From UHGV virus genome UHGV-0363527: a stretch of DNA of 63,110 nt; one strand, written 5' to 3'. The notes beneath the pieces are model-generated. The model was not told where the DNA came from, did not search any database, and saw only the letters and a program-made list of their open reading frames with translations. Every line of letters begins with the position of its first letter. Within the stretch, counting starts at the first letter, position 1. The translations under genes and the position numbers were made by a program. The stretch comes from a virus. Shown here piece by piece: positions 11,325 to 54,840 of the stretch.

Positions 11325-14300
11325 ATGGCACTGGATGGTGTTTTGAATACGGATATTTCTGCAGCACAAGCGTATGCTGCTGCACAGGCTGCACCTGTCT
11401 CTTCTGGTGTACAGCCCTATAGTGTTGTGATGGTCCCGGGCCTTACTGAGCAGGGACCTTTGCAAGATACTCTTGCTCATCAGGCTGCGTACCCACGTCA
11501 GCAGTTTACGACTAGTGTTCCTCTTAGAAGGCCCAGTAGTCAAGCTGACCTTGCCTCTTCCTATGTAAGCACAGTACCTGATGAAGTTCCTGTGTATATG
11601 TCTACTCCTGCTTTTAGTGGTTACTCTCAACCGTTTGAGTATCAAGAACCGAAGCCAGAACACGGTGAGTTCGTAAAGGGTTTCCTTCGTTCTATTCCTC
11701 AGACACAAGCTCTTGTTGCTGCTGGTGGTGCTGCTCTTGCTGACCTTATGGGTCATGAACAGACTGCTGGTGATTTGATGTACTATGCACAACAGAAGCA
11801 AGAAGAAGCACAAGCTCCTGAGCTGAAAGCTGCTGTTGAATCTTACAAAGACGTAGATAGCATTCAGAAGTTTGGTGATTACTTTGCTAGTCTTCTTGGT
11901 GAACAGACGTTGAATGTAGGTATGTCTCTGGCTAGTGGTGGCGTAGGTGCTGCTGCAGGTAAGAGAGTGCTTGCTGGTGCTTTGTCTGGTGCTATTGAAA
12001 AGAAGACTGCTCAGCTTGTAGCTTCTGGTGTTGCTGAAGCTGAGGCTCGTGCTGCTGCTACTAAAGCTGTGACCGCTACTGTTGGTGCACAGATTGGTGC
12101 AATGGCTCCTGAGTTTGTACTGAACACTGGTGAAAACTATTCCGGTAACTATGCTGAGGGAGGGCTACTTACTTCTAACCCCGGCATGGATATTGGTACT
12201 GGTATCTTGCAGTCTGCTGTTACACTGCTTGGTGGTGAAAGTCAGCTGCTTCGTAAAATGACTGGTGTTAAAGTACCTGACTCTGTTGAACGTTCCTTTA
12301 AGGAAAAGCTTAAGGCTTCTGCGTTGTCTCTGCCCAAGGCCATGCTTGGTGAAGGTGCAGAAGAATACACACAGGAATGGTTGGGTGCAGTAAACAGTAT
12401 GATTCAGGACGGACGTGCTCAGCTTACTGCTGATGACTTCGACCGTATGATGGAAGCTGGTATTGCTGGTGCTCTTGTTGGTTCTGCCTCTGGTGGAGCT
12501 GGTGTTATGGTTGACATGCTCAAGCATTCACCTAAGACAGACATTCCGTATGTTAACCCAGACCAGACGCCTCTTGAACTTCAGACTAAGTTTGAAGAAG
12601 AGCTAACTAAGATTGATCCCTTCACTCAGATCTCTAAGGGTGAAGGCATCATGCGTGATGCTATTCGTGTAGAGGCACAGAAAGCTGTAGCTGCTTCTGA
12701 AGAATCTTTTGCTCGTGCTCGTAATCCTATTGTCAATGCTTTGCGTAAGACAAAGGATGAGCTGACTACTGCTCGTGCAGGTACGTCTCCCAAGTATGCT
12801 CTGCTTGCCACACAAGAAGCAAAGGATGCGTACATTAAGAAGCTTGAACGTGCACAGCAGAAGTATACTGCTCAGCTTGCCCGGCTTGCTCAAGCAGAGC
12901 GTGAAGACATTAAGCAACGTAAGCAACAGTTTGAGAAGGATCTTTCTGAGTCTGATAAGAAGGCTCGCAAGGCTTTCCGCGAAACTGTAACAGAACGTTT
13001 TAAGAAGCTTGGCTATGATACCAACCTTACGGCTGAACAGATTGTTGATGACCGTAGGTATCAGGAAGCTTTGTTTAAGAAAGACCCGGTCAAGTACACT
13101 GAGATTATAAACAGCATTCAAGATACTCAGCAGTACGTACAGCGTAAGCTTAATCGTGCTGATGAGCATATGTCTAAGCTGCACGCACGTAGAGCTGAAT
13201 ACAACGTGTACCTTGAGCTCCTGCAGCAGAATGCTATTCCGTACAGTGAACGTCAGTATGAGTTTGTTACAAGTGAGCTTGCTCGTATTGACAAAGACCT
13301 TGCACAGATGAACAGAATGAAGGCAGACGTTAGAAAGTCTGCTGTTAACTTTGCTCGTTCTACTGCACGTGCTCAGGACTTGACTGAAGTTCAGACGAAC
13401 ATGGATGCCTTGTTTGCCAAGGCAGACAGACTTGACCCTGCTGTTCCTTTTGAACTTGACTTGCGTAAGCAACTGAAGGACCTTGCAGACAAGGAAACAC
13501 AAGACCGTATTGATGCTTTGCTTAAGGATGCTCGTGCTCTGCGCAGCACAGCTAAACTGACCAACGATCCCAACTATACGTGGGACGCAGACTTTGCTGA
13601 CTGGCAGGCTGCACAGATGGGCTCCTCTAATCAACAGGCTGCTCTGCCTAGTGCTGATGCTTTCTCACAGAAGTACGGTGCTCTTCAGCAGAACATTGCT
13701 CTTGAGCAAGCTGCTGCTTTGAACAATCAGATTAGTCGTGACAGGGTTGCTGCTGACCAGTACATGCGTAACATGATTGCTGAACAACAGCAACGTGCAT
13801 ATGAAGCTTCTCCTGCTTATCAGGCGCAGCTTAAGGTAGCTCAAGATAAGGCTAGCTATGACAATGCTTTGGATGGCAACGTCCCTGCACGTCAGGCTAT
13901 TCCTCAGGAGACTTCTCAAGCTCGTCGTGACCTTGAAGCTGAACAGCTCAAGCGCATGTACAAGCAAGAGCAACGGTCTAAGCAGATTCGTAACGACATT
14001 GAAGTACAGCGCCAGTCCTTTGAACGGTATACTCAGCAGGAAAAGGAAGTAGACTTCCAGCTTGCTTCTGAAGCTACTCAGCAAGTGTACGACTGGATGA
14101 AGAATACGTTGGCTCAGCTTCCCGGTTTGAAGGATGTTGTGTCTATTTGTTCTTCTGTCACTGACAGTAATGTGCCTACTGCTGTACATGATGCTTTGGT
14201 TAACCTTTCCTTTAATCCCAGCAAGACGCGTGGTATTCCTCAAGCTATGTACTGTGACGGGAAGATCTATGTGTTCGCTGACCGAGTAAAGTCTAAGGCA

Positions 14301-17300
14301 CAGGCAGTGCGGCTGCTTATGCACGAAGGCGTTGCTCACTATGGTCTGCGTGCTATCATGACTCCTCGTCAGTTTACTGGGTTCATGGCTGCTGTCTACC
14401 GTGATGCTTATGGTACTCCTCTGTGGAAAGAGTTTGAACGTCAGCGTCCTGCATACGAGAACGCTAATGACCTTGTTCGTACAGAAGAGTTCATTGCTTG
14501 GGTGGCTGAACGTGAGTCTCCTAAGTCTTTGCTTGAACGTCTCCCTGTCATTCGTGACCTGTACAAGTTTATTCGTAAGCTGTACCAGAAGTTGTTTGGT
14601 GTAGATGGTTATGTTACTGAAGCTGACATCAAGGATGTCCTTGCTGCTTCTGCACAGAACCTCGCTAGCAACAAACCTCAAGGTGTTTCTTCTAACTACA
14701 CTATCTGGGGACGTGCTACATACATGAGCTCGGCTATGAATGACGTGGCTCCTCAGTACGAACGTGTTGACCTTGTGGGCCCAGACGCTTTTGCTGCTCC
14801 ATATGGTTGGGGAACTTACTTCTCTCATCCTACGAAGCTTGCTGACTACTTCAGAAGATTCAACAACAAGCAGTCTGGCCTTCCCGGACAGGTCTACAAG
14901 AACTACGCTCCTTCCTTTGAGCAGTTCATGAACTGGGAACGTCCTCTGTCTGAACAAAGATATGTTGCAGAACATCTTAATCGTTTGTTTAAGCGGATGC
15001 CTCCTCAGCAGATTCCTGCACAAGATGGTATGCATATTCAGTTCTTAGGTAAGGACATCGGTGTCTTCCTTGACAAGAATGAACTTACTCAGTTTATGAA
15101 GAACAAGGGTTACCTTGAACGTGTGACTGGTCAGGATGTGTACGAATATCTTGCGTCTCGGTCTAACGACACTAAGCAGATCTCTAGTATGTTGAGAGAC
15201 TTGGGTGTGGCTGGTACTACCTTTAGCTACAACAACTCCCAGAGCTATTGTTTGTTTGAAGGCGACGACATCAGTCACACTGCTCCTGCATATAGTTCTC
15301 CTGAAGTTCGCTTCTTGGTAGACGAAGATACTACTTACAGTGACATGCCTCCTCTCTATCTTGAAGAGTGGAAGCGTGCACAGATGAACCAGCAGACATG
15401 GACTGACCGTATGGTTAAGATCAAGAACACTGGCAAGTCTGTGGGTATGGATGGTAAGATCATTCCGCATACTGGGTTTGAAAGATTTGTAGAAGGCATG
15501 TATGACAAGTACCGTCGTATTCAGATTGTGCAAAGGTACATTAAGGATACGATTGGTAAGAATGTTATCGCTCCTGCTACAAACATCTACCGTCATATGA
15601 CGGGTATGGTGAATAGAATTAACAGCATTCGCACTGATATTATGAATCAGCGGATTGCACCGCTTTGTGAACAGATTGGTAAGCTTGATATTCCTGCTGT
15701 AAAGGAAGCTCTTGATGACCTGCGTAAGGCTGGTCGTAAGGTTACTGAGCAGGACAGAGTGAATGCTACTTGGTCTGCCCTTGATGAGTTCCTTCTGGCT
15801 CGACATGCGCTGGAACGTAACGCTGAAGTCAACAGGCGGTACCGTGGTAAGAATAAGTTAGAGTCTCCCTCTGGTCTTTCTGACCAGCAGGCACAAGCTA
15901 TCATTGACAAGTACTCTGATGTGCCGGGTATGAATGAGATTGCTGCACAGTTTGACCAGCTTGGTAGATACCATCTGGACATGCTGGACAAGTATCGTAT
16001 TGTTCCCAAGACCCTTACTGATAAGCTCCGTGCTACCTATAAGCACTACGTCCCGTTAAAGAACTGGGAAGAGTTCGTTGACGATCTTGATCCTGACTAT
16101 GCACATAAGAGATCAAAGGCTGGTATTTCTGTTGGTGGTCGGGAGTTGTTGAAGAAGGCGAAGGGGCGGGAAGGTCTTGCAGAAAGTCCTTCTACACACT
16201 TGATGTTGCAGATCATGGATACTGTAAACATCGGTGAGAAAAACGATGTGTCTCGTCGTCTGCTTAACCTCGTTCGAGAAGTTCCTAACGAAGACCTGTG
16301 GGAAATCGCTACGGATAAGAATGAGAAGGGACAGCCATACTTCCGTATGTCTGAGAAGGGGGATGGTACTCTTTACTATGTGAGGAAGTCACATGGTCTT
16401 GAGGGTGAAGGGCACAAGTTCATCAACGTGATTGATGATAAGGGTAACCGTGTTCGTATTGCTATTAAGGACGTAGCTCTTGCTGCTGCTTTGCGTAACG
16501 AGAACACTGTTGAAACAGGTGCAGTCATTAACTTCATTCGTAAGATGACTCAGAAGTTCTCTGCTTTATTGACTACGTATAATCCTGTGTTCGCTATCAA
16601 GAACTATCCTCGTGATATTCAGACTGCTATCTTTAACGTAGGTAATGTAATCTCTGAGGCACAGGCAAACAACTTGCTTGGCAAAGAGAACAACATTCGT
16701 CAGCGTATCATTAAGGATGCTACCTCTTTCCGTATGGTTAAGTTCCTCTGGTCAGAGATGAACGGTAAGGAATATACTGGTAAGGATGCAGCGTACCTTA
16801 AGGAAATGTATAAGAACTTTGTAGACTTTGGTGGGCATACTCGTATGTTCCTTGCTAACGACTACAAGACTATGTACAAGGATGTACGTGAACTGTCAAA
16901 GCAGAAGGGTAACCTTCGTAAAACTCTTGACGGTGCTCTTAAGTATCTGGATACTATCTCTGACGTATCTGAAAATGCCACTCGGTTCTCTGTGTTCGTT
17001 GCTCTGACACAAGAGTTTGACAATCATATTGCTCAGGAAGCTAAGCGTAATGGTTGGTCTGCTCAACAGATGCAAGAGATGATGGATACTGCACATCAAC
17101 GCGCAGCTAACGAAGCTCTGGAGATCACAGTTAACTTTACTCGTAAGGGTTCGTGGGCTCCTCTCTTTAACAGTCTGTGGGCATTCTCTTCTGCTAACAT
17201 CGGTGGTAACGTGCGTATCTTGCGTAACCTCTGGAGGCGTGGCGATAGCTTTGCAAACAATGCAAAGAGAACCGCTGCTTTCATGGCTTATTCAGTAGCT

Positions 17301-18311
17301 TGTGGTATTCCACATGCACTACTGTGTAGGTGGCTTATGGGTGATGATGACGATGGTGTAAGTAAGTATGATAAGATTCCTGACTATATCAAGGACAGTA
17401 ACTTTATTATACCTGCACCTTTTGGTGATGGTGGATACGTAAAGATCCCCTTGCCTTATGGTTATAATATCTTTTGGGTAGCTGCAAATGCAATGGAAGG
17501 TGTAATCAGCGGACGCACCAAGCCTTCCTCTGCCGCTGCTAAAATCTTTGGTGCTTCATTTGATAACTTCAATCCTACTGGTGGAGCTTCCATGTTGAAC
17601 TTCTTGCCTACTATCTTCCGTCCTATCGGTGAAGTAGTAGCCAACCAGAACAGCTTTGGTTATGCTCTTATGCCTGAAAGCACACACAGCTTTAAGGGTG
17701 AAGTACCTGACAGTCAGAAGTACTGGGGTACTAATCCTATGTGGTGCCGTGCTGTAGCAGAGACACTGAACTCTTGGACATTTGGGTCTAAGGTTGAGAA
17801 GGGTTGGATTGATGTGTCTCCTGAAACCATCCAGCATCTTACTGAATCGTACATGGGTGGCCTTGGCAGAGTAGTCACACAAGCTCTTGGCATGTTGACC
17901 TCTCCTGTTACTGGTGCTCCCATTGAGTTGAAGAATGTACCTATTGCTAACTCTTTCTTTGGTAAGGTTGGTTATGGTGATACACTTAATGAGTACAGCA
18001 AGATTCGGAATAAGATGCAGACTGGCTTGAATGAACTTGAGCTTGCACAGAAGGATACAACTCTTTCTCCTGATGAACGTACTGAGATTAGAAACAAGAA
18101 CAGAACTATTCAGCAGCTCAAGAGTAGATATGATTCTATCAATGCTCGCTTGAATAGCGTTCGCAAGCTTGAGAAGTTGAATGAAAAGAACAACAAGTCT
18201 ACGGGTACTAAGTTCTACGAAGAAAAGGAAAAGCTGCAGAAGCGTAGAGAATTTTTGATGAAGGAACTTACTCGTGTGGCTAAGCAGTCAGGTCTTGACT
18301 ATAGGGATTAA
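11325..18311 (+). CDS. giant (2328 aa) internal virion / injected protein with a zincin-like HExxH motif
   Basis: Single uninterrupted ORF of 6987 nt. Ala/Gly-rich N-terminus, a long Q/R/E/K coiled-coil region, then MHEGVAHYGL (HExxH) followed by an EEF..E segment. Position equals the T7 gp16 / internal core slot. Confidence 0.7.
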   Translation: MALDGVLNTDISAAQAYAAAQAAPVSSGVQPYSVVMVPGLTEQGPLQDTLAHQAAYPRQQFTTSVPLRRPSSQADLASSYVSTVPDEVPVYMSTPAFSGYSQPFEYQEPKPEHGEFVKGFLRSIPQTQALVAAGGAALADLMGHEQTAGDLMYYAQQKQEEAQAPELKAAVESYKDVDSIQKFGDYFASLLGEQTLNVGMSLASGGVGAAAGKRVLAGALSGAIEKKTAQLVASGVAEAEARAAATKAVTATVGAQIGAMAPEFVLNTGENYSGNYAEGGLLTSNPGMDIGTGILQSAVTLLGGESQLLRKMTGVKVPDSVERSFKEKLKASALSLPKAMLGEGAEEYTQEWLGAVNSMIQDGRAQLTADDFDRMMEAGIAGALVGSASGGAGVMVDMLKHSPKTDIPYVNPDQTPLELQTKFEEELTKIDPFTQISKGEGIMRDAIRVEAQKAVAASEESFARARNPIVNALRKTKDELTTARAGTSPKYALLATQEAKDAYIKKLERAQQKYTAQLARLAQAEREDIKQRKQQFEKDLSESDKKARKAFRETVTERFKKLGYDTNLTAEQIVDDRRYQEALFKKDPVKYTEIINSIQDTQQYVQRKLNRADEHMSKLHARRAEYNVYLELLQQNAIPYSERQYEFVTSELARIDKDLAQMNRMKADVRKSAVNFARSTARAQDLTEVQTNMDALFAKADRLDPAVPFELDLRKQLKDLADKETQDRIDALLKDARALRSTAKLTNDPNYTWDADFADWQAAQMGSSNQQAALPSADAFSQKYGALQQNIALEQAAALNNQISRDRVAADQYMRNMIAEQQQRAYEASPAYQAQLKVAQDKASYDNALDGNVPARQAIPQETSQARRDLEAEQLKRMYKQEQRSKQIRNDIEVQRQSFERYTQQEKEVDFQLASEATQQVYDWMKNTLAQLPGLKDVVSICSSVTDSNVPTAVHDALVNLSFNPSKTRGIPQAMYCDGKIYVFADRVKSKAQAVRLLMHEGVAHYGLRAIMTPRQFTGFMAAVYRDAYGTPLWKEFERQRPAYENANDLVRTEEFIAWVAERESPKSLLERLPVIRDLYKFIRKLYQKLFGVDGYVTEADIKDVLAASAQNLASNKPQGVSSNYTIWGRATYMSSAMNDVAPQYERVDLVGPDAFAAPYGWGTYFSHPTKLADYFRRFNNKQSGLPGQVYKNYAPSFEQFMNWERPLSEQRYVAEHLNRLFKRMPPQQIPAQDGMHIQFLGKDIGVFLDKNELTQFMKNKGYLERVTGQDVYEYLASRSNDTKQISSMLRDLGVAGTTFSYNNSQSYCLFEGDDISHTAPAYSSPEVRFLVDEDTTYSDMPPLYLEEWKRAQMNQQTWTDRMVKIKNTGKSVGMDGKIIPHTGFERFVEGMYDKYRRIQIVQRYIKDTIGKNVIAPATNIYRHMTGMVNRINSIRTDIMNQRIAPLCEQIGKLDIPAVKEALDDLRKAGRKVTEQDRVNATWSALDEFLLARHALERNAEVNRRYRGKNKLESPSGLSDQQAQAIIDKYSDVPGMNEIAAQFDQLGRYHLDMLDKYRIVPKTLTDKLRATYKHYVPLKNWEEFVDDLDPDYAHKRSKAGISVGGRELLKKAKGREGLAESPSTHLMLQIMDTVNIGEKNDVSRRLLNLVREVPNEDLWEIATDKNEKGQPYFRMSEKGDGTLYYVRKSHGLEGEGHKFINVIDDKGNRVRIAIKDVALAAALRNENTVETGAVINFIRKMTQKFSALLTTYNPVFAIKNYPRDIQTAIFNVGNVISEAQANNLLGKENNIRQRIIKDATSFRMVKFLWSEMNGKEYTGKDAAYLKEMYKNFVDFGGHTRMFLANDYKTMYKDVRELSKQKGNLRKTLDGALKYLDTISDVSENATRFSVFVALTQEFDNHIAQEAKRNGWSAQQMQEMMDTAHQRAANEALEITVNFTRKGSWAPLFNSLWAFSSANIGGNVRILRNLWRRGDSFANNAKRTAAFMAYSVACGIPHALLCRWLMGDDDDGVSKYDKIPDYIKDSNFIIPAPFGDGGYVKIPLPYGYNIFWVAANAMEGVISGRTKPSSAAAKIFGASFDNFNPTGGASMLNFLPTIFRPIGEVVANQNSFGYALMPESTHSFKGEVPDSQKYWGTNPMWCRAVAETLNSWTFGSKVEKGWIDVSPETIQHLTESYMGGLGRVVTQALGMLTSPVTGAPIELKNVPIANSFFGKVGYGDTLNEYSKIRNKMQTGLNELELAQKDTTLSPDERTEIRNKNRTIQQLKSRYDSINARLNSVRKLEKLNEKNNKSTGTKFYEEKEKLQKRREFLMKELTRVAKQSGLDYRD

Positions 18312-18830: not shown

Positions 18831-18850
18831 GTATCTACAGGATGGATAAT

Positions 18851-18896
18851 AGAAAACCCCCTGCCGTTCTTGATCTTTCCGGCAAGGGGTTTCTGC
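18851..18896. terminator. second bidirectional rho-independent terminator at the convergence of late (+) and early (-) transcription
   Basis: agaaaaCCCCCTGCCGttcttgatctttcCGGCAAGGGGtttctg; A-run upstream gives a U-tract on the minus strand. Confidence 0.6.
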
Positions 18897-18965
18897 GTGT
18901 GTATGCAACCAGTGGGGGACAATCCCAGAGTACAGCCAGTCCACGCAACTGTCGCTCTTGATTAT

Positions 18966-18993
18966 AAGATAATCACTAACAAAAAGTTGTCAA
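18966..18993 (-). promoter_or_regulatory. sigma70-like promoter on the minus strand (TTGACA-16-TATCTT) facing the terminators
   Basis: Reverse complement of 18966-18993 reads TTGACAactttttgttagtgatTATCTT. Confidence 0.4.
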
Positions 18994-19042
18994 GTGTTTT
19001 CTGAAAGAAAAACTTGAAGGAACATAGTTCCGTTGTCAAGTC
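18987..19042 (-). repeat. copy A of a duplicated ~57-nt regulatory element (two CTTGACAA boxes flanking palindrome GGAACTATGTTCC)
   Basis: About 80 percent identical to 30693-30750. Confidence 0.55.
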
Positions 19043-19096
19043 CTAACGTCCCTTTTTCTTCTTTTTCTTACCACCACAGGCCATACATACCTCCTT

Positions 19097-19389: not shown

Positions 19390-20127
19390 CTAGGCAGCAG
19401 GCGTGGTCGTAGTCTTAGACAGTGCATCAATGATAGCACGAGTCTGAGCGTTCTGAGACAGCTGCATCGTAAGCGCAGCGTTCTCGCGTTCCAGCCCACT
19501 GATCTTTTCCTGAGTCATGTAACCAATGATCGCCGCCTGATTAGCCTGAATGGCAGCAAGCGTCTCACAATGGTTGGCTGCCATGCGGGTCTTGATGTCA
19601 CAGAATTCCTGCTGATTCTGGAACTGATTAGCCGTAGCCTGTTCCCGAATACCAGTGGCAAGATCCTGCATACGGAGCTGCGTCTGGCAGCAGCAATCGG
19701 AAAGCTGGTGAGACAGAGCATCCGTCGCACGCTGATTAGCGTTAGACGCACGTTCGATGTTCAGATTGGTTTCGCAGCAACACGCCGAAGCAGCGTCCCG
19801 AGCGTCACGTACAGCATTGGTAATAGCGTAGGTGCTATCACAGATGCCGTTACCGACACGAGAGAACTGACCGCACTGTTCAACAGACATACCGTTCAGC
19901 TTTTCAAGGATGAGTTGGTTCGCATTGTCCAGACCATTAGGAGCCATGTTACGTCCAAACATACCGTTCCCGAATCCTCCGAAAGCAAACAAGATAATCA
20001 GGATCCACCACATCCACTGCTGACCACCCATAGCACCGCCGTTCATAGCCATCATTTCAGCGAGCTTGTTACCATCACCAGACTTAGCAAGAGTAAGGAG
20101 ATCCGCAAGAGAGCCTTGTTCCATCAT
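19390..20127 (-). CDS. hypothetical membrane-anchored coiled-coil protein with CCC motifs
   Basis: 245 aa; TM segment WMWWILIILFAFGGFGNGMF; two Cys triplets (ACCCETNL, DCCCQTQL). Confidence 0.5.
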   Translation of the reverse strand: MMEQGSLADLLTLAKSGDGNKLAEMMAMNGGAMGGQQWMWWILIILFAFGGFGNGMFGRNMAPNGLDNANQLILEKLNGMSVEQCGQFSRVGNGICDSTYAITNAVRDARDAASACCCETNLNIERASNANQRATDALSHQLSDCCCQTQLRMQDLATGIREQATANQFQNQQEFCDIKTRMAANHCETLAAIQANQAAIIGYMTQEKISGLERENAALTMQLSQNAQTRAIIDALSKTTTTPAA

Positions 20128-20240
20128 GTTTAACCTTCTAGTTAGTTAAGCGTTAGCACAGAGACAGGCAACTTAAAGTCCACCTGTCTCTGACGTAGCT
20201 AACAACTACGTTTAAGGTAACACAATGTATCTTATAAAAT

Positions 20241-20268
20241 AAGATAAGGCTTATTAGTCTTTTGTCAA
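20241..20268 (-). promoter_or_regulatory. sigma70-like promoter (TTGACA-16-TATCTT) for 20127..19390
   Basis: Reverse complement reads TTGACAaaagactaataagcctTATCTT. Confidence 0.45.
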
Positions 20269-20514
20269 GGCCAACCGTTGTTCATCCTCAGGCATGATAT
20301 GGCCATACTTTTGAAAGTATGCTTCCTTTTCTGGGTCAGAGCCCGTAGGCTCCATACTCATAATGGCTTGCATACTACACTGTGCCAACTCAAGGAAACC
20401 ACCTAGCCTGTAAAAGAACAGCTCAACGTTTTCCTTTGTGATGTCAACAGGAAGTTCAATCTCTCTGGTGACAACCTCGTTATCACAAGGAACAGAAATA
20501 GTGAACACTGACAT
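20254..20514 (-). CDS. hypothetical protein
   Basis: 86-aa ORF. Confidence 0.4.
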   Translation of the reverse strand: MSVFTISVPCDNEVVTREIELPVDITKENVELFFYRLGGFLELAQCSMQAIMSMEPTGSDPEKEAYFQKYGHIMPEDEQRLALTKD

Positions 20515-25202: not shown

Positions 25203-25474
25203 TCGTCTTCCTTTGTGCTGGTAAGAGTAATAACTTCAGAAGGTGAAGTTTCATCCTTCACATATCTATCATTAACCACTCCTGTGGAATTGTCAACGAT
25301 ATCTTCTGCAACTTTCTTACTCAACTTACCAAACACTCTGACAGACTTCTTTGTCTTACCACAACGAGAACACTTGAACTGTTCGACTTCAATGCGGATG
25401 ATATCATACGCAGTGCCAGTCCACACTTCAGTACTTTCCCAGTTGTGGTCTTTAAAGAAACACATCAATCCCAT
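25184..25474 (-). CDS. hypothetical protein
   Basis: 96-aa ORF. Confidence 0.35.
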   Translation of the reverse strand: MGLMCFFKDHNWESTEVWTGTAYDIIRIEVEQFKCSRCGKTKKSVRVFGKLSKKVAEDIVDNSTGVVNDRYVKDETSPSEVITLTSTKEDECKKAA

Positions 25475-26238: not shown

Positions 26239-26671
26239 TAGTCATAAGTTGAAGATTGTACCACCTGTTGTCTGCTTTATTTTTGTTTTTATGGTGAACT
26301 ACATAACCTTTAGGCAGGCTGTCTAAACCTTCGTGCTTACAGCATACTAACACATGAGCTTGAACTCTACAGTTATTTACTGTGCCTTTCCACCAAGAAG
26401 GTGGCGGCACCCATATATAACCTCTCTGGTCTACTGTTGGTCCTTGCACACGAGTAGCACTGTTATAAATACCTCGTCTTCGATAAGACTCGCTTGATCT
26501 AATTCGCCGTTCTTCTGGGGTTAAGTAGAGTCTAGCTATACGTTTGATGTTAGATTCTGAGTACTCAAACATAACTGCTATCTCTTCACAAGTTAGCGTG
26601 TTAAGTTTAAGAATACGCACTATCTCATCAACCGGATAAGCTAGACCTCGTACATACTTACGCTTCCTCAC
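26174..26671 (-). CDS. HNH homing endonuclease with N-terminal HTH
   Basis: HHKNKNKADNRWYNLQLMTNADHLALH HNH motif; paralogue of 26893..27411 and 31657..32250. Confidence 0.7.
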   Translation of the reverse strand: MRKRKYVRGLAYPVDEIVRILKLNTLTCEEIAVMFEYSESNIKRIARLYLTPEERRIRSSESYRRRGIYNSATRVQGPTVDQRGYIWVPPPSWWKGTVNNCRVQAHVLVCCKHEGLDSLPKGYVVHHKNKNKADNRWYNLQLMTNADHLALHREERSARCKANKV

Positions 26672-26892: not shown

Positions 26893-27411
26893 TTATACAC
26901 TGTACTCACGTACATACAAAGACTCCTCATCTATTGCACGACACAACCTTCTATTTCTATGCAGCTTAGCATGATCTTTGTGTAGCATAAGTACTAAGTT
27001 TTTACCTCTATTATCTGTCTTGTTTCCGTTGATGTGATGTACTGCATAACCGGTAGGAAGTTTGTCTAAACCCATACGCTTACAGCAAACAAGATGGTGG
27101 GACAGAGTTCGTCCTTTCGATGTTGTGCCCTTCCACCACTTCGGTGTAGTTGACCATAGGTATGCATTATACAATCTTGGCCCAGCATATGTAGGTTTAT
27201 AAGCTCTCCTAAAGTTTTCCTGTCGTTTAACTTCTGAGCTACGCTTACGCCTAAAGTCTTTAGAACATAGTATATTCATCCAGTTATGTAATATCTTGCT
27301 GTCTACACCATACTTCTTAGAAAGCTTTCTAATAGAGGTAGTGGTTTCAAATAAATCTGTCATAAACGATAGAATATCAAAACCTTTAGTTAGACCTAAA
27401 GACAAACTCAT
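26893..27411 (-). CDS. HNH homing endonuclease
   Basis: HHINGNKTDNRGKNLVLMLHKDHAKLH. Confidence 0.7.
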   Translation of the reverse strand: MSLSLGLTKGFDILSFMTDLFETTTSIRKLSKKYGVDSKILHNWMNILCSKDFRRKRSSEVKRQENFRRAYKPTYAGPRLYNAYLWSTTPKWWKGTTSKGRTLSHHLVCCKRMGLDKLPTGYAVHHINGNKTDNRGKNLVLMLHKDHAKLHRNRRLCRAIDEESLYVREYSV

Positions 27412-30111: not shown

Positions 30112-30205
30112 AACACTCCTAAAAAGAAAAGGCCAGTATATGATGTATATGTTGTCAAGTTACATATTCACATCAATAGACTGGCCTCTTTTGAGTTAAG
30201 CTAAT

Positions 30206-30637: not shown

Positions 30638-30672
30638 GGACTTTTCCTATGTTTTCACGCGCGTATAAAAGA

Positions 30673-30700
30673 AAGATAAACACGAAAGAAGATTTGTCAA
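30673..30700 (-). promoter_or_regulatory. sigma70-like promoter (TTGACA-16-TATCTT) for 30637..30206, embedded in copy B of the duplicated element
   Basis: Reverse complement reads TTGACAaatcttctttcgtgttTATCTT. Confidence 0.45.
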
Positions 30701-30750
30701 GAACTTTCTAAATGAAAGTCTTGAAGGAGCACAGCTCCGGTTGTCAAGAG
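30693..30750 (-). repeat. copy B of the duplicated ~57-nt regulatory element (palindrome GGAGCTGTGCTCC between two CTTGACAA boxes)
   Basis: Aligned by eye with 18987-19042. Confidence 0.55.
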
Positions 30751-31640
30751 AGGAAGGCAGGAAGATCTGCGAAGATCTTATCCATCTCTTCTTCCTTGAT
30801 CTCCTTCGTATTACCATAGTCATACCCTACTTCACAGTCTCCTGTCAAGGGTACCACAATATCCCAACCAAAGTATTCTTTAGCAAGTTGAGGTAAACTA
30901 CGGAACAGCTTAATACCTTCACGGCACAGAATCTCTGCTTCTTCTACAGGACAATCCCATACCATCGAGTCATGAACTTGAAGAATCAAGTTAGCCTTGA
31001 GACCAAGCTCAGCTACGCGTTCTATGAACTTGACCATGCATAGAAACATAATGTCAGATGAGGCAGACTGAACAGGATAGTTCTTTACTTGCTTGACATC
31101 AACAGACTCAATACCGTTACGTACTTCTTCATCAAACGTGAGCACACGTCCAGAAGGATTACGTAAGTATCCACGTGCGGCTGCAATCTGTGCGTTCTCG
31201 TCTTGCCAACGCTTCAAGCCTTGATACTTTGCATAGAATGCGTTAACAATCTCTCTCCATCTCTTTAAGCTATAGTCAGGCATACGCTGGTCTCGATAGA
31301 AACCTTCAGCGGAACCACCATAGAGAAGACGAAAGGACATTGTCTTAGCAGCTGTACGAACTTTCTTAAACTCTTTCGAGCCACGTTCATACTGGCCAGC
31401 ATCAAAGAATCGGATAGCATTGTCAGCATGAATGTCCAGACCTGTGTCCAACTCGTGAAGCATGACAGGATCTCTGCTCAGCTCAGCAGCAATACGCCAT
31501 TCAATCTGAGCTAAGTCAAGATTTACAATAACCCCTTGTTTACTTTTAAAGAATGTTTTGATGGGGCTGGTACCACTACGGGGAAAGTTTTGGCCATTCT
31601 CAAATTTTGTATACTGATCAGCTAAGTATACTTCCCTCAT
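30744..31640 (-). CDS. polA: family-A DNA polymerase, C-terminal part (palm/fingers; exon 2)
   Basis: Pol I motif A DLAQIEWR, motif B RTAAKTMSFRLLYGGS, motif C VHDSMVWD; N-terminus ENGQNFP continues the ..SSNP|NLQNIP region of exon 1. Confidence 0.8.
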   Translation of the reverse strand: MREVYLADQYTKFENGQNFPRSGTSPIKTFFKSKQGVIVNLDLAQIEWRIAAELSRDPVMLHELDTGLDIHADNAIRFFDAGQYERGSKEFKKVRTAAKTMSFRLLYGGSAEGFYRDQRMPDYSLKRWREIVNAFYAKYQGLKRWQDENAQIAAARGYLRNPSGRVLTFDEEVRNGIESVDVKQVKNYPVQSASSDIMFLCMVKFIERVAELGLKANLILQVHDSMVWDCPVEEAEILCREGIKLFRSLPQLAKEYFGWDIVVPLTGDCEVGYDYGNTKEIKEEEMDKIFADLPAFLS

Positions 31641-32301
31641 TACTGTGGTAATTGGACTATATCATCATGAGTAGACAGTACTTAAAGAGTAAGTCTACCC
31701 AAGCTGGGCGCTGTCCTATGTCTTCATAGGCACTTAGTCTCTGCACCTTCTTCAGTATTGCATGAATATGTCTGTGCTGACCAGACTTTAACAAGGCTAA
31801 GTTCCAAACCTTGTTGCATAGTTTATCACCATTGATATGGTGAACGTGCATTCCTTTTGGAACCTTTGTCATACCGTCTCTTTTGCAAACAACAACATGA
31901 TGCACAAAAACTTTACTAGAGTTTCCGCGTGTTCCTGTAAACCAGCTAGGTTTATAGACTAGAGCATAGCCGTCATTGTCTATTGTAATACCACCTGTAT
32001 AAAAAGGACTGTTCTTTCCTTTTCTGTTGTACATGGTGTTTAACTTACCAAGCTGGGCTCGTCTATAGTTCTTGGCCTTGCGTGCTTTTCTTTCTTCTTC
32101 TGAAAGTCTGTTATTAGCCACACGCCAAACAACATGTGCACTAGACTTTAGTTCATCAGCAATCTGCTGATATGTAAGCGCTGTGTTGATTAAGAGATGG
32201 TATGCTTGTTCATGCACTGAAGCTTGGCTCATGATTGCCCTCAGCGACATCTGTTAGGGTTTCCATGAGTTCACCCAGTTTTACAACCCCAATGGGTACT
32301 T
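31599..32301 (-). mobile_element. probable group I intron (about 0.7 kb) carrying an HNH ORF and interrupting the family-A DNA polymerase gene
   Basis: Exon 1 homology ends at ..TGRLSSSNP and exon 2 resumes at ..(N)GQNFP. This is the conserved TGRLSS-PNLQNIP segment of Pol I. The two ORFs are otherwise colinear with one polymerase. Confidence 0.5.
31657..32250 (-). CDS. HNH homing endonuclease inside the DNA polymerase gene
   Basis: HHINGDKLCNKVWNLALLKSGQHRHIH; lies exactly between the two polymerase ORFs. Confidence 0.7.
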   Translation of the reverse strand: MSLRAIMSQASVHEQAYHLLINTALTYQQIADELKSSAHVVWRVANNRLSEEERKARKAKNYRRAQLGKLNTMYNRKGKNSPFYTGGITIDNDGYALVYKPSWFTGTRGNSSKVFVHHVVVCKRDGMTKVPKGMHVHHINGDKLCNKVWNLALLKSGQHRHIHAILKKVQRLSAYEDIGQRPAWVDLLFKYCLLMMI

Positions 32302-33408
32302 AGGGTTGGAAGAAGAGAGTCTACCTGTACGTGTAATGCACTGGTTAAAGGAAGGATGAAGCCTGTCGTCTTTACCGATGACAGCAATCAATCCTGCCTC
32401 TTTCTCTTCTTTAGAACCAGCAATTGAAGACACTACTTTCATCAGCTTCTTCTGATCTCGTAGTGTTTGAAGGAAGGACTCAGAGCGTTTGTCACGAGAC
32501 TTTAACAAATCAAGCGTGTTCTTATCAGTTGAAGGCAAGCCAGTCTTCTTAGACAAGCAGCCGTCTGGAACTTTAAAGCCAAGTCCCTTGATAGGAATCT
32601 CAATCTTAGTCTTACGTGTGGTGATCTTAAACTTACCGCTCTTTAGCTGACGAGCTACAAGTTCAGGAACTTCTTTCTTCCAAGAACCACCAAATAAAAC
32701 AGCACTGAGTTGTGAAGCAGAGGAGGGAGTAAAGTCAATACCAGCCAGATCGACCAGCGTCTTGTCCATTGCTTTAACCTGTTCACGCGTTTGGTTACAG
32801 TAAGCAATAGCTTCTTCTTTGTCGAAGGCTGCACCAGATACTTCCATGTCAGAAAGGATCTGGGTTAGACGGAAAGAAAGTTCCGTTATCTTGCCAAGGC
32901 TTGCACGCTCAATGAGCGTGAGTTGTTTCTTGAACACGTCATGTGTAAGATGTACGTCCTGCTTGAGATAGTCTTCATGAATCTCTAACGGAATCTCATC
33001 CGTCTCATATCCAGCTTGCCAATACATAGCCATAGCATCGAGCTTATGACCTAAGCCATAGCGTTTGGCAACAGCATTCAAACTATACTCAAGTTTACGC
33101 TGACCATTTATGAGATAGTCAGCTACCATCGTACACCAGACTGGCTTGTCCTTGACATTCAAACCAATCCACTTCAACCAGTTCAAGTCGAACTTGATGT
33201 TGTGCCCAATCAAGAAGTCAACACTGTCAATCTCTTGTTGGATTTCAGCAAGAAGTTCTTCGTGTGGTCTATCGTTCGGATTGAAGAACCACACGGTTGA
33301 GGTACCGTCCTGACGTTCAATTCCAACAGAGCACAAGAAGGAACCTACTGTCCAAGGCATGTGCTTTGGTGCTTTAGAACATTCTATGTCGAGTACCGCG
33401 TAAGGCAT
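32281..33408 (-). CDS. polA: family-A DNA polymerase, N-terminal part (3'-5' exonuclease + N-terminal polymerase domain; exon 1)
   Basis: Exo I VLDIECS, Exo II FLIGHNIKFDLNWL, Exo III YLKQDVHLTHDVF; ends with RLHPSFNQCITRTGRLSSSNP (pre-motif-A segment). Confidence 0.8.
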   Translation of the reverse strand: MPYAVLDIECSKAPKHMPWTVGSFLCSVGIERQDGTSTVWFFNPNDRPHEELLAEIQQEIDSVDFLIGHNIKFDLNWLKWIGLNVKDKPVWCTMVADYLINGQRKLEYSLNAVAKRYGLGHKLDAMAMYWQAGYETDEIPLEIHEDYLKQDVHLTHDVFKKQLTLIERASLGKITELSFRLTQILSDMEVSGAAFDKEEAIAYCNQTREQVKAMDKTLVDLAGIDFTPSSASQLSAVLFGGSWKKEVPELVARQLKSGKFKITTRKTKIEIPIKGLGFKVPDGCLSKKTGLPSTDKNTLDLLKSRDKRSESFLQTLRDQKKLMKVVSSIAGSKEEKEAGLIAVIGKDDRLHPSFNQCITRTGRLSSSNPKYPLGL

Positions 33409-35037: not shown

Positions 35038-35390
35038 GAGTTAAGGTCAACCTTCTAATTCAGAAGAAATATAGTCTTAATGTTCAAAGCATTAGTTACC
35101 TATAGTACTTATGAATTAAGAGTTAGGTTTAGTCTTAGGATATTATACCTAAATAAGGTACTTACGAAGTAAGTTATTTAAGATATTATACTTAAGTAAG
35201 GTTAAGTAACGGCTAAGATATACTTAGATATATTATAATACTTAATTAAGTAAAGTCAAGGATACTTATTAAGATACTTAATATATTAACCTAAAGGTTT
35301 TATCTTTAGGTTTACCTGTTAAGTAACCTATAGTACTATAGGTATAAGATCAAACACCTGCTTGTCAAGTACCTGTCTGCACATTTATTA
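35038..35390. repeat. AT-rich repeat region between helicase and primase genes (candidate replication origin / promoter region)
   Basis: About 350 bp of roughly 25-30 percent GC with reiterated TTAAGTAA / ATACTTAA / CCTATAGTACT words. Confidence 0.5.
35341..35368 (-). promoter_or_regulatory. sigma70-like promoter (TTGACA-16-TATACC) upstream of helicase gene
   Basis: Reverse complement reads TTGACAagcaggtgtttgatctTATACC. Confidence 0.4.
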
Positions 35391-45735: not shown

Positions 45736-46254
45736 CTACTTGCCCAGCTTGGAGATGTAGGCTACGGCATCAGCCTCAGCCTTTCCGATGTCGAGGACAG
45801 AAAAGCCGACAGACTTTACCGGGATGTCGTCGTCAGGTTGCGACAGTTCCATCCCCATGCCGGGATACTTACGCTCAGCGTACTTGGATTTACCCCGGCG
45901 TTGACGTTCACGAGCGATAGCAGCGGCTTGCGATCTGGTCTTGCCACACGCAGGACATTTGCACGTGGGGCACAGGCGTTCGTACTTATCACCAACAGGT
46001 ACGAGTTCCAGCCTGCGCTTGACACGCTCAATGATGCGAGCCTGCGGACTACCATGTCCGTAGAACTCAATCAGTTCTTCAAAGAACTTGACAATCTCGT
46101 TGTCAAGAATAGCAGAACCAACAGGTGTTCCCATAAAATGTATCTCCTTGTTGTTCATTTGTTTCTTTGTAGATGTTAAGCCAGTCTTCCACAAGTTCCA
46201 TAGCCTGCGGTCGGTCGGACTCAGCACAGAGCCCAGACCTGAGCATGAAATCAA
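45736..46254 (-). CDS. hypothetical zinc-ribbon protein
   Basis: 172 aa, CPTCKCPACG. Confidence 0.4.
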   Translation of the reverse strand: MISCSGLGSVLSPTDRRLWNLWKTGLTSTKKQMNNKEIHFMGTPVGSAILDNEIVKFFEELIEFYGHGSPQARIIERVKRRLELVPVGDKYERLCPTCKCPACGKTRSQAAAIARERQRRGKSKYAERKYPGMGMELSQPDDDIPVKSVGFSVLDIGKAEADAVAYISKLGK

Positions 46255-48203: not shown

Positions 48204-48479
48204 TTACAATTCCGTTTGTACAGTAAATGTGCTGTCAGGTTCAGCGTACAGCCACCACGAAACACCGTCAGAATCTTTAAACAGAAAGGTTTCGTCTATC
48301 TGTTGAAGGTCTACACCTAGGCAGAGGCAGAGCAAACGTGCCTCATAGAAAGTAAGCAATTGACCGTCATACAATTGAGCGGCATCCCTGAATGAATCAA
48401 GCGTGGTGTTGTTATCATATACAGGACGCAAGACAGTTCCCATGTTGTCTACTCCTTTGTTAGATTCATGGCACAACAA
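48204..48479 (-). CDS. hypothetical protein
   Basis: 91-aa ORF preceded by a perfect 11-bp-stem hairpin. Confidence 0.4.
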   Translation of the reverse strand: MLCHESNKGVDNMGTVLRPVYDNNTTLDSFRDAAQLYDGQLLTFYEARLLCLCLGVDLQQIDETFLFKDSDGVSWWLYAEPDSTFTVQTEL

Positions 48480-48511
48480 AAGCCCCGATAAGAACTTGCC
48501 TATCGGGGCTT
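48480..48511 (-). terminator. intergenic hairpin (AAGCCCCGATA / TATCGGGGCTT, 11-bp perfect stem), attenuator/terminator or RNase III site
   Basis: Read directly; on the minus strand it is followed by TTGTTGTGCC then the start of 48479 gene. Confidence 0.4.
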
Positions 48512-48535
48512 CAATGTGACGTGAATGTAGGGGGC

Positions 48536-50351: not shown

Positions 50352-50511
50352 CGTGACCAGCCCACGCGTAAAAGTCTATGGCATGATTGCCTTTCATGAG
50401 CATATTGACATAACGTTGGGAAAGATACTTTAACATGGTAGTTCTCCTATCTTGTTAAATAACTTAAATGATTACAGGGACTTACGTATGCCCCTGTAAC
50501 GATTAAGCTAC

Positions 50512-50781
50512 TTACTTCCAGCTAAGCATACGCCTTTTCAACTTGCCCATAGGAATAGTGGCAAGTGCCTTTGCCATGAATTCCCATTCGCCATCACGTT
50601 TGATATAGAAATAAACGCGGAAAGGCTTAATGTCAGGCTCGTTGATTCGGTTCCGCGCCCAGTTATACATGAAGTCTTTATTGGTAAACAGACCGTGAAC
50701 CAGCTTAACGCTTGTCGTGGGCATACCATCTTCCAAGCGCATTCCCCAGACTTCGGCCTTGTAGACATTCTTGGCTTTCAT
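50512..50781 (-). CDS. hypothetical small protein, paralogue of 47415..47702
   Basis: 89 aa; see paralogue pattern. Confidence 0.45.
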   Translation of the reverse strand: MKAKNVYKAEVWGMRLEDGMPTTSVKLVHGLFTNKDFMYNWARNRINEPDIKPFRVYFYIKRDGEWEFMAKALATIPMGKLKRRMLSWK

Positions 50782-52640
50782 AGTAGTGCTCCTCTTGTTT
50801 AATAGTTTAGTTGGCTACAAGGGATTAACGCACCTAAGGCACCTCATTCCCTTGTAGCTGTTAAACTATTAACAGACTGAACACCTTTGCCTACTATTTA
50901 TAGTCGTTGCACTGTTCCCAACGCAGGCTGTAGCGCAGCCTTTTAACGCCAATGCTCGACGACTGTAGCCTTTCTAAAGCTACTTCAATCCGCCCTTTGA
51001 GCCGTCTTATCACATTGCTAGAGTGTAAGTCTGCAATGCCGTTTACGGTTTATCGGCAGATTATAGGCTTGCTGTAAGTAGGACTTTCCCCCGACCTACC
51101 TTGCACCTGCGCACAAGGCCCCCAGTCGGCTTGTTCCGTCCCCTTGCTTATACGTCGCACCTGTAGTTACAGGAGTATATAAGCAAGCCTCGTTTTTCTG
51201 TACATCGGAGCACTTCTTAGCTTGAACTAACAGGCAAACCGCACTCAAGGCACAATTTGCAAGGTAGCATAGACAAGCTAAGTTTTACGCACATCCAACG
51301 CAAAACCTGCAATCCGATTTTCCAAAGAGCCTTATTAAGCTCTTGGCATGATTGTAACTTGTGTATGTGCTACAATCCTAGCAGGACGACACACTAAGCT
51401 AGTGCCGTTAAGTAAATCTAGCTAACTTGAGTTAGCTTGTTGAAAGCGTTCTCTCATAAGTTTTTGCGCTTGTCAAGTACTTTTTTGCCTTTTTTCGTTG
51501 TGTCCGTGTGGCTCATTATTCCGGCTGCCGACTACTCTTTAGAATGTCGTAACACTCGCAAGCAAAGAACAGCGTTTAGCTGTTTAACGTCCGCCTATTT
51601 CTGGTGACTGGACACAAACAAGGCAAGTACTCAACAAAGACGCTATGCACTTGTGAAAGAACACGTTCATCGTTGAAATGGACTCTACAGGAGCCTTACG
51701 GCTATGTCAAGCACTTTTTCAACGCTTTTTAAAAGAACGTATAGTAGCGCTAGCTACGCTAGCTGTATCGTATGGGCTTGTGACCCGTCCGATGCCTTTT
51801 ATATAGCAAGCCGTGTGCCAAACTGTAAGTAGTTGAAATTATTAGACCCCGCTACGCGGGTAAGTTCAAGAATTTGTACCTAGTAGGCGCGCCGGCTGGT
51901 GTTTGTGGAGCTTATAGTGCACGCACATAGTGCGGAACCATAAGAACTACAGGTACTTAGATCATGGTTCAAACATTTGTACTTTTGGAGTGCATGAGTA
52001 CAATAAGTTGAACCTATGCCTAACCATGCTAAACCATTTACACTTTTGTACCATGCTTACTATAGGTAGTTGATTTAATTAACCTTTAAAAACGATTAGC
52101 TAGGTTTAGCTGCTATTGGTAACTATTAGTAGCTGTTTGTTGATAATGATTACCATTGATGGCTGGTTCTTTGGTTCTAATCCTACCCACAAGCTAGGCT
52201 ATGAACCAGTGCTAATCATACCTAACCTATTGTAATCATTGTACTTTTTAGTTGTCTATAATCATCCAACAACTACTAGGAGTAACACTTCAAACCTTAG
52301 GAGTCACACTGTGCTTTCTTTCACTAGGGGGAGAGGGAGCATCCCCTACCCGTGGGACAGAGCGGAGGCACGGGGGTACAGTTGACACAGACTTCACCCA
52401 CAAATTTACCAGCTTCGCTCGCAGCTTTAGGGGGCTGAATGACGTCATCATAATCGTTTCTATATCTCATGGTTCTATAAGTTCAGAACAAGTCTAGGAG
52501 GTATATTCACCATGCTCCTTCTCATCTTACACCATATGTCACCAACAGTAGTCAGGAGTAGCTACTAGTAACCGGCCCGGCCTCACCTACTGGTTACTTA
52601 TGCCTACCTAAACTTTTTTAACTTTTTTCGTCCAAACCCC

Positions 52641-52675: not shown

Positions 52676-53080
52676 AAGAATAAGAAATCACGGAGTGATT
52701 CGCAGGGTTGCTGCTGTGATTGATTGGATGATTAAATTCATGCTTCAACTCAGTTCACATGTACAGCACTGGTACTTGAGCAATACATGCTTGTTCATGT
52801 GAACACGCTTTCTTTAGGCTGTGAGCGAGCCTCAAAGCGAGCGAACTACTTAGGTAGTTTGAGTTGATTAGGACATGGGAAAATAGTATCTAACATCCAA
52901 CAGCCTGAAAGCAAACTCTCCGACTTATTGGTTACTAAGCTACGCTTTGTAGTCAATAGGGCCGAGCGCCCCTATCAAATTCTGAACATTAAAACATTAG
53001 TCTGACCAAAAGAAAAGCCCCCGTTCTACATAGGATCCATGCCTTGCATAGTACCTATAGTAGCCGGGGGCTTGTTGCGT
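52676..53080 (+). ncRNA. candidate ~400-nt noncoding transcript (promoter 52641 to terminator 53011-53085), no ORF >25 aa
   Basis: Promoter, ORF-free interval with 9-bp-stem inverted repeat GTTCACATG..CATGTGAAC and GAGCGAGC direct repeats, ending in a strong terminator. Confidence 0.3.
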
Positions 53081-53974: not shown

Positions 53975-54013
53975 TTTATTTCACTTTTTATACATTTTTT
54001 TACTATAACCCCT

Positions 54014-54040
54014 TGACAAAATATATATAGTTATTATACT
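54014..54040 (+). promoter_or_regulatory. sigma70-like promoter (TTGACA-15-TATACT) for the + strand operon starting at 54118
   Basis: ccccTTGACAaaatatatatagttatTATACT. Confidence 0.45.
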
Positions 54041-54066
54041 ATATTTTAGGTTATAGTATACATAAA

Positions 54067-54096
54067 TACTATAATCACTAATTGACTTCTTGTCAA
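54067..54096 (-). promoter_or_regulatory. divergent sigma70-like promoter (TTGACA-18-TATAGT) for 53974..53081
   Basis: Reverse complement reads TTGACAagaagtcaattagtgattaTAGTAT. Confidence 0.4.
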
Positions 54097-54117
54097 GAGG
54101 TATAAAAAGAAAAAGTT

Positions 54118-54840
54118 ATGGATAGTCAAATTTTACTAGGGATCGTTAACGGTCTGTCAAGCTTAGTAAAAGACGCTGACTATATATCACTTGCGATGCT
54201 GGGAGGAACTGCATTCATTATCTATGAATGTGCAACTTTATCGTCTTTTTTAAAACGTGTAGCTAAACACAAGACAAAGAAGTTTGCAAAGGATTTTCCA
54301 TCACTCATTGATATGAATAGGCGTGTTCTTACCAAGCTTAAACATGCTAAGTCTGAATTAAATGCAGACAGAGTTGCAGTTGTTCAGTTTCATAACGGGT
54401 GTCAAAACCTGTCTGGTATTGACTTTGCAAAGATGTCTTGCACACATGAAGCTGTTCGTCCCGGCCTTAAACCAGCACAGGCTGATTTCTTAAACCTGCC
54501 TGTGTCTGCTTTCTCATATCTTACTAACGCTGCTTTTGGTATAGAACCTAAAGTAATTCTGAACATCGAACGTTTGCGTAAGTTTGATATGTCTACATAT
54601 ACACTACTGAAGGCACACAAAGCTGTGTCCTTTGCTCTTACTCCTCTCATCTCTGATAACCAAGATGTCTTTGGTTTCATGGTTGTAGAGTTCTGCAAGC
54701 TTCGTGAAGACATTACTTCTGGTGACTTCCAGTTCCTTTTAAAGACATATGCAGAGAAGATAGCTACCTTGCTTGACCGCTCTGACTTAGGTGACCTTGA
54801 TGAAGAAAGACTCTATAAAGCCCCTTCTGAAGAAGCCTAG
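54118..54840 (+). CDS. hypothetical protein with N-terminal hydrophobic segment
   Basis: 240-aa ORF, first gene of right-hand + operon. Confidence 0.45.
   Translation: MDSQILLGIVNGLSSLVKDADYISLAMLGGTAFIIYECATLSSFLKRVAKHKTKKFAKDFPSLIDMNRRVLTKLKHAKSELNADRVAVVQFHNGCQNLSGIDFAKMSCTHEAVRPGLKPAQADFLNLPVSAFSYLTNAAFGIEPKVILNIERLRKFDMSTYTLLKAHKAVSFALTPLISDNQDVFGFMVVEFCKLREDITSGDFQFLLKTYAEKIATLLDRSDLGDLDEERLYKAPSEEA

Follow-up and report, generated by a model that had tools for sequence, protein, structure and literature searches.

An optional hairpin-bearing unit upstream of two putative sigma-70-type promoters in an uncultured podovirus-like gut phage

In T4-type myoviruses, indels go together with the promoter-early stem-loop (PeSL) cassettes, in which a stem-loop terminator and an AT-rich tract accompany a sigma-70 promoter (Arbiol et al. 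2010, PMC2839356; Comeau et al. 2014, PMC4122927). Two promoter elements also bear on the locus described here, namely the UP element, with the consensus AAAWWTWTTTTNNNAAA and subsites near -42 and -52, and the extended -35 element, with the consensus tcTTGACAt, to which the octamer CTTGACAA corresponds (PMC2412878). A stem-loop, an A/T-rich tract and what appears to be a sigma-70-type promoter follow one another at two sites in the phage genome analysed below. Short direct repeats that flank palindromes are deletion hot spots, the deletions arising by replication slippage, and the hairpin promoters recognized by the N4 virion RNA polymerase have a 5–7-bp stem and a 3-nt loop.

The window, that is, the whole stretch of DNA analysed (UHGV-0363527; 63,110 nucleotides), is an apparently complete phage genome of ~63 kb. 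This gut phage is uncultured and podovirus-like, with a portal protein 31–34% identical to those of HMO-2011/CRP-type podoviruses; its close relatives are 62–63-kb contigs from human-gut metagenomes; no close relative was found among cultured phages (megablast of both copy regions against INPHARED, no match). The genes are arranged in two blocks:

54118 across the window ends to 18781, plus strand: structural block, with terminase, portal and the 2328-aa virion protein (LPD38 domain)
~54000 down to 19097, minus strand: early/replication block, with primase, DnaB-like helicase, ThyX, exonuclease, ligase, endonuclease I and a split family-A DNA polymerase

The family-A DNA polymerase (polA; 30744–33408, minus strand) consists of two ORFs, interrupted by an HNH endonuclease gene at 31657–32250. 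A second HNH gene is located at 26893–27411, and a paralogous segment joins 26243–26395 and 26986–27138. The region of divergent early and late promoters is spanned by a 154-nt imperfect inverted repeat (70% identity; 53978–54131), which contains mirrored CTTGACAA...TTATA(G/C)TAT promoters. Other long palindromes are found at 50799–50872, 50456–50514, 48461–48529, 35270–35330, 25358–25449 and 20127–20224.

Neither a phage RNA polymerase nor a sigma factor, nor any recognisable regulator, turned up among the proteins scanned, and the phage therefore presumably uses the host polymerase throughout. Likewise, a DNA-binding regulator (helix-turn-helix or other domain) was not detected in the ~35 window proteins scanned against Pfam, many small ORFs being unscanned or without a family. 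Searches of PHROG, Pfam and NCBIfam assigned no function to the neighbouring 143-aa, 76-aa, 245-aa and 102-aa proteins. The 2328-aa virion protein (11325–18311, plus strand) matches only the C-terminal parts of PHROG families of 2800–3900 aa, the function of which is unknown; it has no relative among solved structures, and LPD38 is its sole Pfam domain.

A preliminary description of this DNA had reported a regulatory element in two copies, at 18987–19042 (copy A) and 30693–30750 (copy B). Both are in place, and their identity, estimated by eye at about 80%, amounts to 77.6% over 76 nt with one gap (18966–19040 against 30673–30748; E 4e-9 in a self-BLAST), the similarity reaching past the earlier limits, through the -10 hexamer. 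In the same self-BLAST the pair ranks as the third-best intragenomic match and, among the non-coding direct repeats of the window, as the best; a repeat listing of the window missed it because a 1-nt indel splits it. Each copy, read on the minus strand, is composed of CTTGACAA, a core of 38 or 39 nt, a second CTTGACAA, 14 nt and TTATCTT. The 13-bp palindrome said to lie between two boxes does so: a search of the window for GGARCTRTGYTCC without mismatch returned 19019–19031 and 30726–30738 only, and the boxes are found at 18987–18994 and 19033–19040, and at 30694–30701 and 30741–30748. The parts of the two sites, all on the minus strand, are as follows:

19033–19040, minus strand: site A box 1, the upstream CTTGACAA; its CTTGA is the 5' arm of the outer stem of hairpin 1
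18995–19032, minus strand: site A 38-nt core, with inner hairpin, outer arm, hairpin 2 and a T-rich UP-like tract
19019–19031, minus strand: site A inner hairpin, GGAAC-TAT-GTTCC
19013–19017, minus strand: site A 3' outer arm, TCAAG
18997–19011, minus strand: site A hairpin 2, TTTTC..GAAAA
18987–18994, minus strand: site A box 2, the extended -35 element of the resident promoter; kept in all relatives, including the outgroup L019–L021
18966–18971, minus strand: site A -10 hexamer TATCTT; predicted transcription start near 18959
30741–30748, minus strand: site B box 1; holds the TGA stop codon of the polA C-terminal fragment (30744–30746)
30702–30740, minus strand: site B 39-nt core, with inner hairpin, outer arm and hairpin 2
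30726–30738, minus strand: site B inner hairpin, GGAGC-TGT-GCTCC
30720–30724, minus strand: site B 3' outer arm, TCAAG
30703–30719, minus strand: site B hairpin 2, ACTTTC..GAAAGT
30694–30701, minus strand: site B box 2, the extended -35 element of the resident promoter
30673–30678, minus strand: site B -10 hexamer TATCTT; predicted start near 30666, the 143-aa gene starting at 30637

Copy B lies, as had been described, between the polA C-terminal fragment (30744–31640, minus strand) and the 143-aa gene. Copy A does follow the last genes of the early block, but it does not simply face terminators, as it precedes a conserved, terminated RNA of ~110 nt. Its two neighbours are:

19043–19084, minus strand: micro-ORF MACGGKKKKKKGR of 13 codons, whose stop codon is 2 nt away from box 1 and whose Shine-Dalgarno sequence, GAAGGAGG, is strong
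18846–18959, minus strand: conserved ~110-nt putative transcript of the site A promoter, with a 5' stem-loop and an intrinsic terminator (stem 18853–18892)

In the outgroup the micro-ORF retains MACGGKKKKKGK, with four synonymous third-position changes and only synonymous ones in the first seven codons, so that MACGGKKKKKKGR is probably translated. Length variants of 1 nt and 3 nt are seen among relatives in the A-run of the micro-ORF. In the ~110-nt RNA, for which Rfam gave no match, the 5' stem-loop is invariant, and a compensatory change between CCG/CGG and CAG/CTG is seen in the terminator; a 2-nt indel speaks against a coding role. Most relatives possess a 102-aa ORFan after the terminator (L005:4923-5231), which is missing in the window and in L026. 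The conserved RNA downstream indicates that the promoter of copy A would not be firing into nothing.

Each site has the appearance of a promoter of the sigma-70 type for the host RNA polymerase, of the form tCTTGACAA, 14 nt, TTATCTT. The combination TTGACA-16-TATCTT noticed earlier was recovered at both sites by a consensus scan, with 10/12 matches, and again at 20268. Relatives at ~97% and ~80% identity share the -35 box, the -10 box and the first transcribed bases while their spacers diverge, both within the ingroup and towards the outgroup. A working promoter should show such a pattern, and the promoter reading is thus borne out as far as sequence allows. The segment GATTATCTTATAATCAAGAGCG is invariant in the relatives except for one C-to-T change, located inside the -10 hexamer of L024. 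The window contains 20 copies of the octamer CTTGACAA, where 3.9 would be expected, and the family CTTGACAA-N14-TTATCTTAT has further members at 20269 (minus strand) and 52640 (plus strand). Box 1 was rejected as a second promoter, since it has no acceptable -10 hexamer at 16–18 nt, and by eye neither a plus-strand promoter nor a plus-strand terminator was seen within the unit.

About ten copies of CTTGACAA reside in coding sequence, somewhat above chance, and a perfect inverted octamer pair, CTTGACAAtctcgTTGTCAAG, is found inside an ORF at 46087–46107. Another copy occupies the loop of a long hairpin terminator between the 143-aa and exonuclease genes (30112–30205, minus strand) and has no usable -10 hexamer. 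The CTTGACAA-N14-TTATCTTAT promoter at 52640 lies inside the early block but points the other way, and no long ORF is present in the next ~400 nt, which extend to a G+C-rich hairpin near 53015–53075; the segment 52640–53080 is a candidate non-coding RNA.

Relatives near-identical to the window, from IMG/VR and human-gut metagenomes, were compared, and the element was found to be conserved at both sites in part of the close relatives. The preliminary description had considered a mobile promoter cassette. Something does come and go, but the varying part is a unit of 46/47 bp located upstream (the core plus one CTTGACAA), while the promoter stays, empty sites retaining a single box. At site A, the box-core-box arrangement with the 38-nt core is present in the window and in eight other haplotypes, and a single box is present in L017, L022, L024, L026, L029–L032 and the outgroup L019–L021. 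At site B, box-core-box was found in the window, in L013 and in 14 metagenome loci, and the single box in L007–L012, where the sequence is ...CTCT-CTTGACAA-ATCTTC... and the box contains the TGA that ends polA.

The presence of the unit does not track the flanking sequence, carriers and non-carriers being mixed in both main clades. L028, which has the unit, and L030, which does not, differ at 6 of 1200 flanking positions; for L009 (without the unit) and L174 (with it) the difference is 1 of 400. Each of four promoter-spacer haplotypes was found in both states, and all four presence/absence combinations of sites A and B occur among the contigs. This distribution points to at least 2–4 independent gains or losses of the unit, or to very short-patch recombination. 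The outgroup lacks the unit at both sites, which implies at least one gain per site, an event for which slippage cannot account. The A cores are identical in all carriers, and so are the B cores save for one substitution in L186, whereas A and B cores are only ~71% identical to each other, so that their common origin would be either old or external; a donor of the core was not found. Since the leader adjoining the A core is equally invariant (carriers differ by 0–3 of 130 nt), the perfect identity of the A cores is not by itself evidence of selection. In L177, L182 and L185 the 3' segment of polA is ~24% divergent until ~140 nt before the stop codon and identical beyond it, indicating mosaic recombination inside the polymerase gene. 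A recombination junction at the unit itself was rejected, since the divergence of polA in L177 and L182 already ends ~140 nt upstream of it.

The unit was found nowhere beyond the two sites of one lineage in pattern scans of IMG/VR, of 241 million metagenome records and of 185,579 GTDB genomes. The loose pattern TCCTTCAAG-N12-28-CTTGACAA gave more than 100 matches in IMG/VR, all of them due to chance (mostly in coding sequence) besides the known carriers L001–L005, and the metagenome and genome scans otherwise returned chance coding matches only (L183, L184, L187, L190, L192, L193). A covariance model of the unit detected no diverged or further copies in 358 kb of related loci, and no tandem TTGACA pairs with hairpins were seen in the distant relatives L033–L059. 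Rfam at gathering thresholds gave nothing, with only sub-threshold chance matches around copy A.

The unit is predicted to form two hairpins. Hairpin 1 starts 0–2 nt past the upstream stop codon in both copies, which is that of polA at site B and that of the 13-codon micro-ORF at site A. It comprises an outer stem, CUUGA/UCAAG, for which the upstream octamer is used, a conserved internal loop, CAAC(C), an inner stem, GGARC/GYUCC, and a 3-nt loop; the folding energies of the two copies are -9.5 and -10.8 kcal/mol (z-scores -3.0 and -2.4). Hairpin 2, (U/C)UUUC, 5 nt, GAAA(A/G), follows directly. Copies A and B differ by one compensatory pair in each hairpin, A-U to G-C and U-A to C-G. Of the cells, 95.7% are paired, against at most 57% in shifted registers; a shuffle control gave 45/500, which is not decisive, and the covariation involves two sequence types only. 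The pair-preserving changes are suggestive of a nucleic-acid stem rather than a shared protein operator. Hairpin 1 is short, has an internal loop and was not flagged by a simple terminator scan. The extended stem is followed by UUUUUCUUUC in copy A and by ACUUUCAUUU in copy B; the latter is a poor U-run, which makes real termination doubtful there.

The right half of the core, predicted to fold as hairpin 2, is an A/T-rich tract at -38 to -59, with 73% A+T when the module is present versus 41–55% when it is absent. In the register -57 to -41, site A matches the UP consensus at 11/15 positions with the module (P ~3e-4 against the window background) and at 4/15 without it, a match of 11/15 being reached by 0.03% of window positions. 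For site B the match is modest, at 9/15 with the module (P ~0.01) and 6/15 without it. The strong promoters at 54012 and 54097 (divergent) and at 52640 have UP scores of 9–11 and T-runs upstream.

Taken together, we propose that each site is a sigma-70-type promoter equipped with an optional, PeSL-like module, an attenuator and a booster in one, which is recurrently lost by slippage, a reading that we hold with about as much doubt as confidence. It starts from what the alignments show, namely the anatomy of the sites, the indel polymorphism, promoter boxes that are conserved and changes that preserve pairing, and from these we infer promoter activity, attenuation, an UP effect and slippage. 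The stem-loop, positioned right after the upstream stop codon, would attenuate incoming transcripts or supply their 3' end, and the A/T tract, contacted by the alpha subunit of RNA polymerase much as an UP element is, would boost the restart promoter. Together, the two parts would give insulation and greater strength to what is otherwise a bare read-through promoter. The identical 8-bp direct repeats that bracket the hairpins form a substrate for slippage during replication, by which the module could be deleted precisely and repeatedly, while recombination between co-infecting relatives could restore it. If this is true, an insulator/booster module exists as plus and minus alleles in the natural populations of one gut phage, at two promoters, one located after the DNA polymerase gene and the other that of a conserved small RNA or ORFan, and these populations possess a simple recurrent genetic switch that tunes early gene expression. 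The plus/minus allele pairs are natural controls for reporter assays.

Among the alternatives, the one that fares best, although we consider it unlikely, is that the unit has no selected function, having been left behind at two promoters by an old rearrangement, palindromic or tandem, and is now decaying by slippage. Consistent with this, the unit is dispensable at both sites, as seen from the four presence/absence combinations, and its core is no more identical among carriers than the adjacent leader. However, the two loci have kept their architecture, register and pairing, two compensatory pairs included, despite 29% divergence, and the module is maintained in many genomes from different samples.

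The preliminary description had also suggested a shared regulator-binding module, and the 13-bp palindrome GGARC-N3-GYTCC could be bound, as an operator or as an activator site, by a dimeric protein of the phage or the host that co-regulates both promoters. Both copies are perfect palindromes at equal distance from the -35 box, hairpin 2 is also palindromic (TTTC-N5-GAAA), and class I activators use a range that includes about -66, the position near which the centre of the palindrome would lie. Nevertheless, the copies differ symmetrically, and with pairing preserved, in both palindromes, which fits the upkeep of stems better than the specificity of a shared protein; the site is dispensable in near-identical relatives, the Pfam scan of ~35 window proteins revealed no regulator domain, and the motif is found nowhere else in the genome. 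We therefore do not favour this explanation and regard it as rather improbable. The consensus of the Gram-positive LexA (Cheo) box is GAAC-N4-GTTC; a LexA box was rejected, as the half-sites are separated by N3 and are GAGC/GCTC in copy B. Compared by eye with the consensus sequences of IHF, Fis, CodY and LexA, the two copies did not both show a convincing fit to any of them.

It is similarly doubtful that the module acts in the RNA only, protecting or processing the 3' end of the upstream message (the polA or micro-ORF transcript) in a REP-like manner and leaving the promoter unaffected. The hairpins start just past upstream stop codons and their pairing is kept between the copies, as such a role would have it, but the stems are short (10–12 bp in total), too short for RNase III, and the exact register with the -35 box and the match to the UP consensus would be left unexplained.

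Finally, the 38/39-nt core might be a miniature non-autonomous mobile element that inserts at CTTGACAA and duplicates the 8-bp target, which we judge very improbable. At each of the two loci the insertion is exactly at CTTGACAA, with the octamer on both sides and one copy at empty sites, its presence does not follow the phylogeny of the flanks, the outgroup is empty at both sites, and the hairpins near both ends recall IS200/IS605-derived and REP elements. Against this, inspection by eye in all 8 boundary registers revealed no terminal inverted repeats of the unit, only two sites are occupied despite ~20 CTTGACAA targets per genome, the database scans and the covariance model yielded nothing further, the site-specific core variants (71% identity) speak against recent transposition between the sites, and no transposase was found in the proteins scanned. 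It is just as hard to believe that the core represents a new kind of ultra-small mobile DNA, perhaps inserting into CTTGACAA as hairpin-guided single-stranded DNA, which repeatedly rewires promoter strength and insulation in wild gut phages.

As for the known systems, the proposed promoter module can be compared with several of them. Like small hairpin-bearing intergenic units of the REP, IS200/IS605-derived and MITE types, the unit lies between copies of a repeated short sequence; unlike these, it lacks terminal inverted repeats, a multicopy family and, among the proteins scanned, a transposase, and it is confined to two sites. As in N4 hairpin promoters, a 5-bp stem is combined with a 3-nt loop in the inner hairpin, where the middle base of the loop is a purine on the minus strand; an N4-type promoter was rejected, as the hairpins are dispensable and located away from the start of the early region, and the 2328-aa virion protein, with LPD38 only, has no match to solved N4 virion RNA polymerase at E 0.01, a weak test if the enzyme is very divergent. 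With slippage hot spots the sites share 8-bp direct repeats, 38–39 nt apart with hairpins between them, and what would be precise and recurrent losses, but the unit must also have been gained at least once per site. The A/T-rich tract resembles an UP element in being in the correct register, with 11/15 matches at site A; in contrast, site B reaches 9/15, the tract is also a small inverted repeat, and binding of the alpha C-terminal domain is putative.

The closest likeness is to one subclass of PeSL, with an upstream stop codon, a stem-loop, an AT-rich tract, a near-consensus sigma-70 promoter and a downstream gene in this order, and, as with PeSL, the module is tied to indels between close relatives. 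PeSL cassettes, however, are present in dozens of copies, clustered in hyperplastic regions and flanking ORFans, whereas the module has two copies per genome; the phage studied here is podovirus-like and not T4-like; and the stem is AT-rich, unlike the polyG/polyC stem of PeSL. Furthermore, the indel of PeSL is an ORFan between two cassettes, while here it is the stem-loop/AT module itself, bracketed by the duplicated -35 octamer. Given this copy number, a location outside hyperplastic regions and a genome that is not T4-like, the module would work like PeSL without being a member of the family. Every one of its components has a known precedent, which makes it only moderately surprising. If the proposed reading is true, the PeSL idea, namely that a terminator, an AT tract and a promoter mark indel-prone sites, reaches beyond the T4-type myoviruses.
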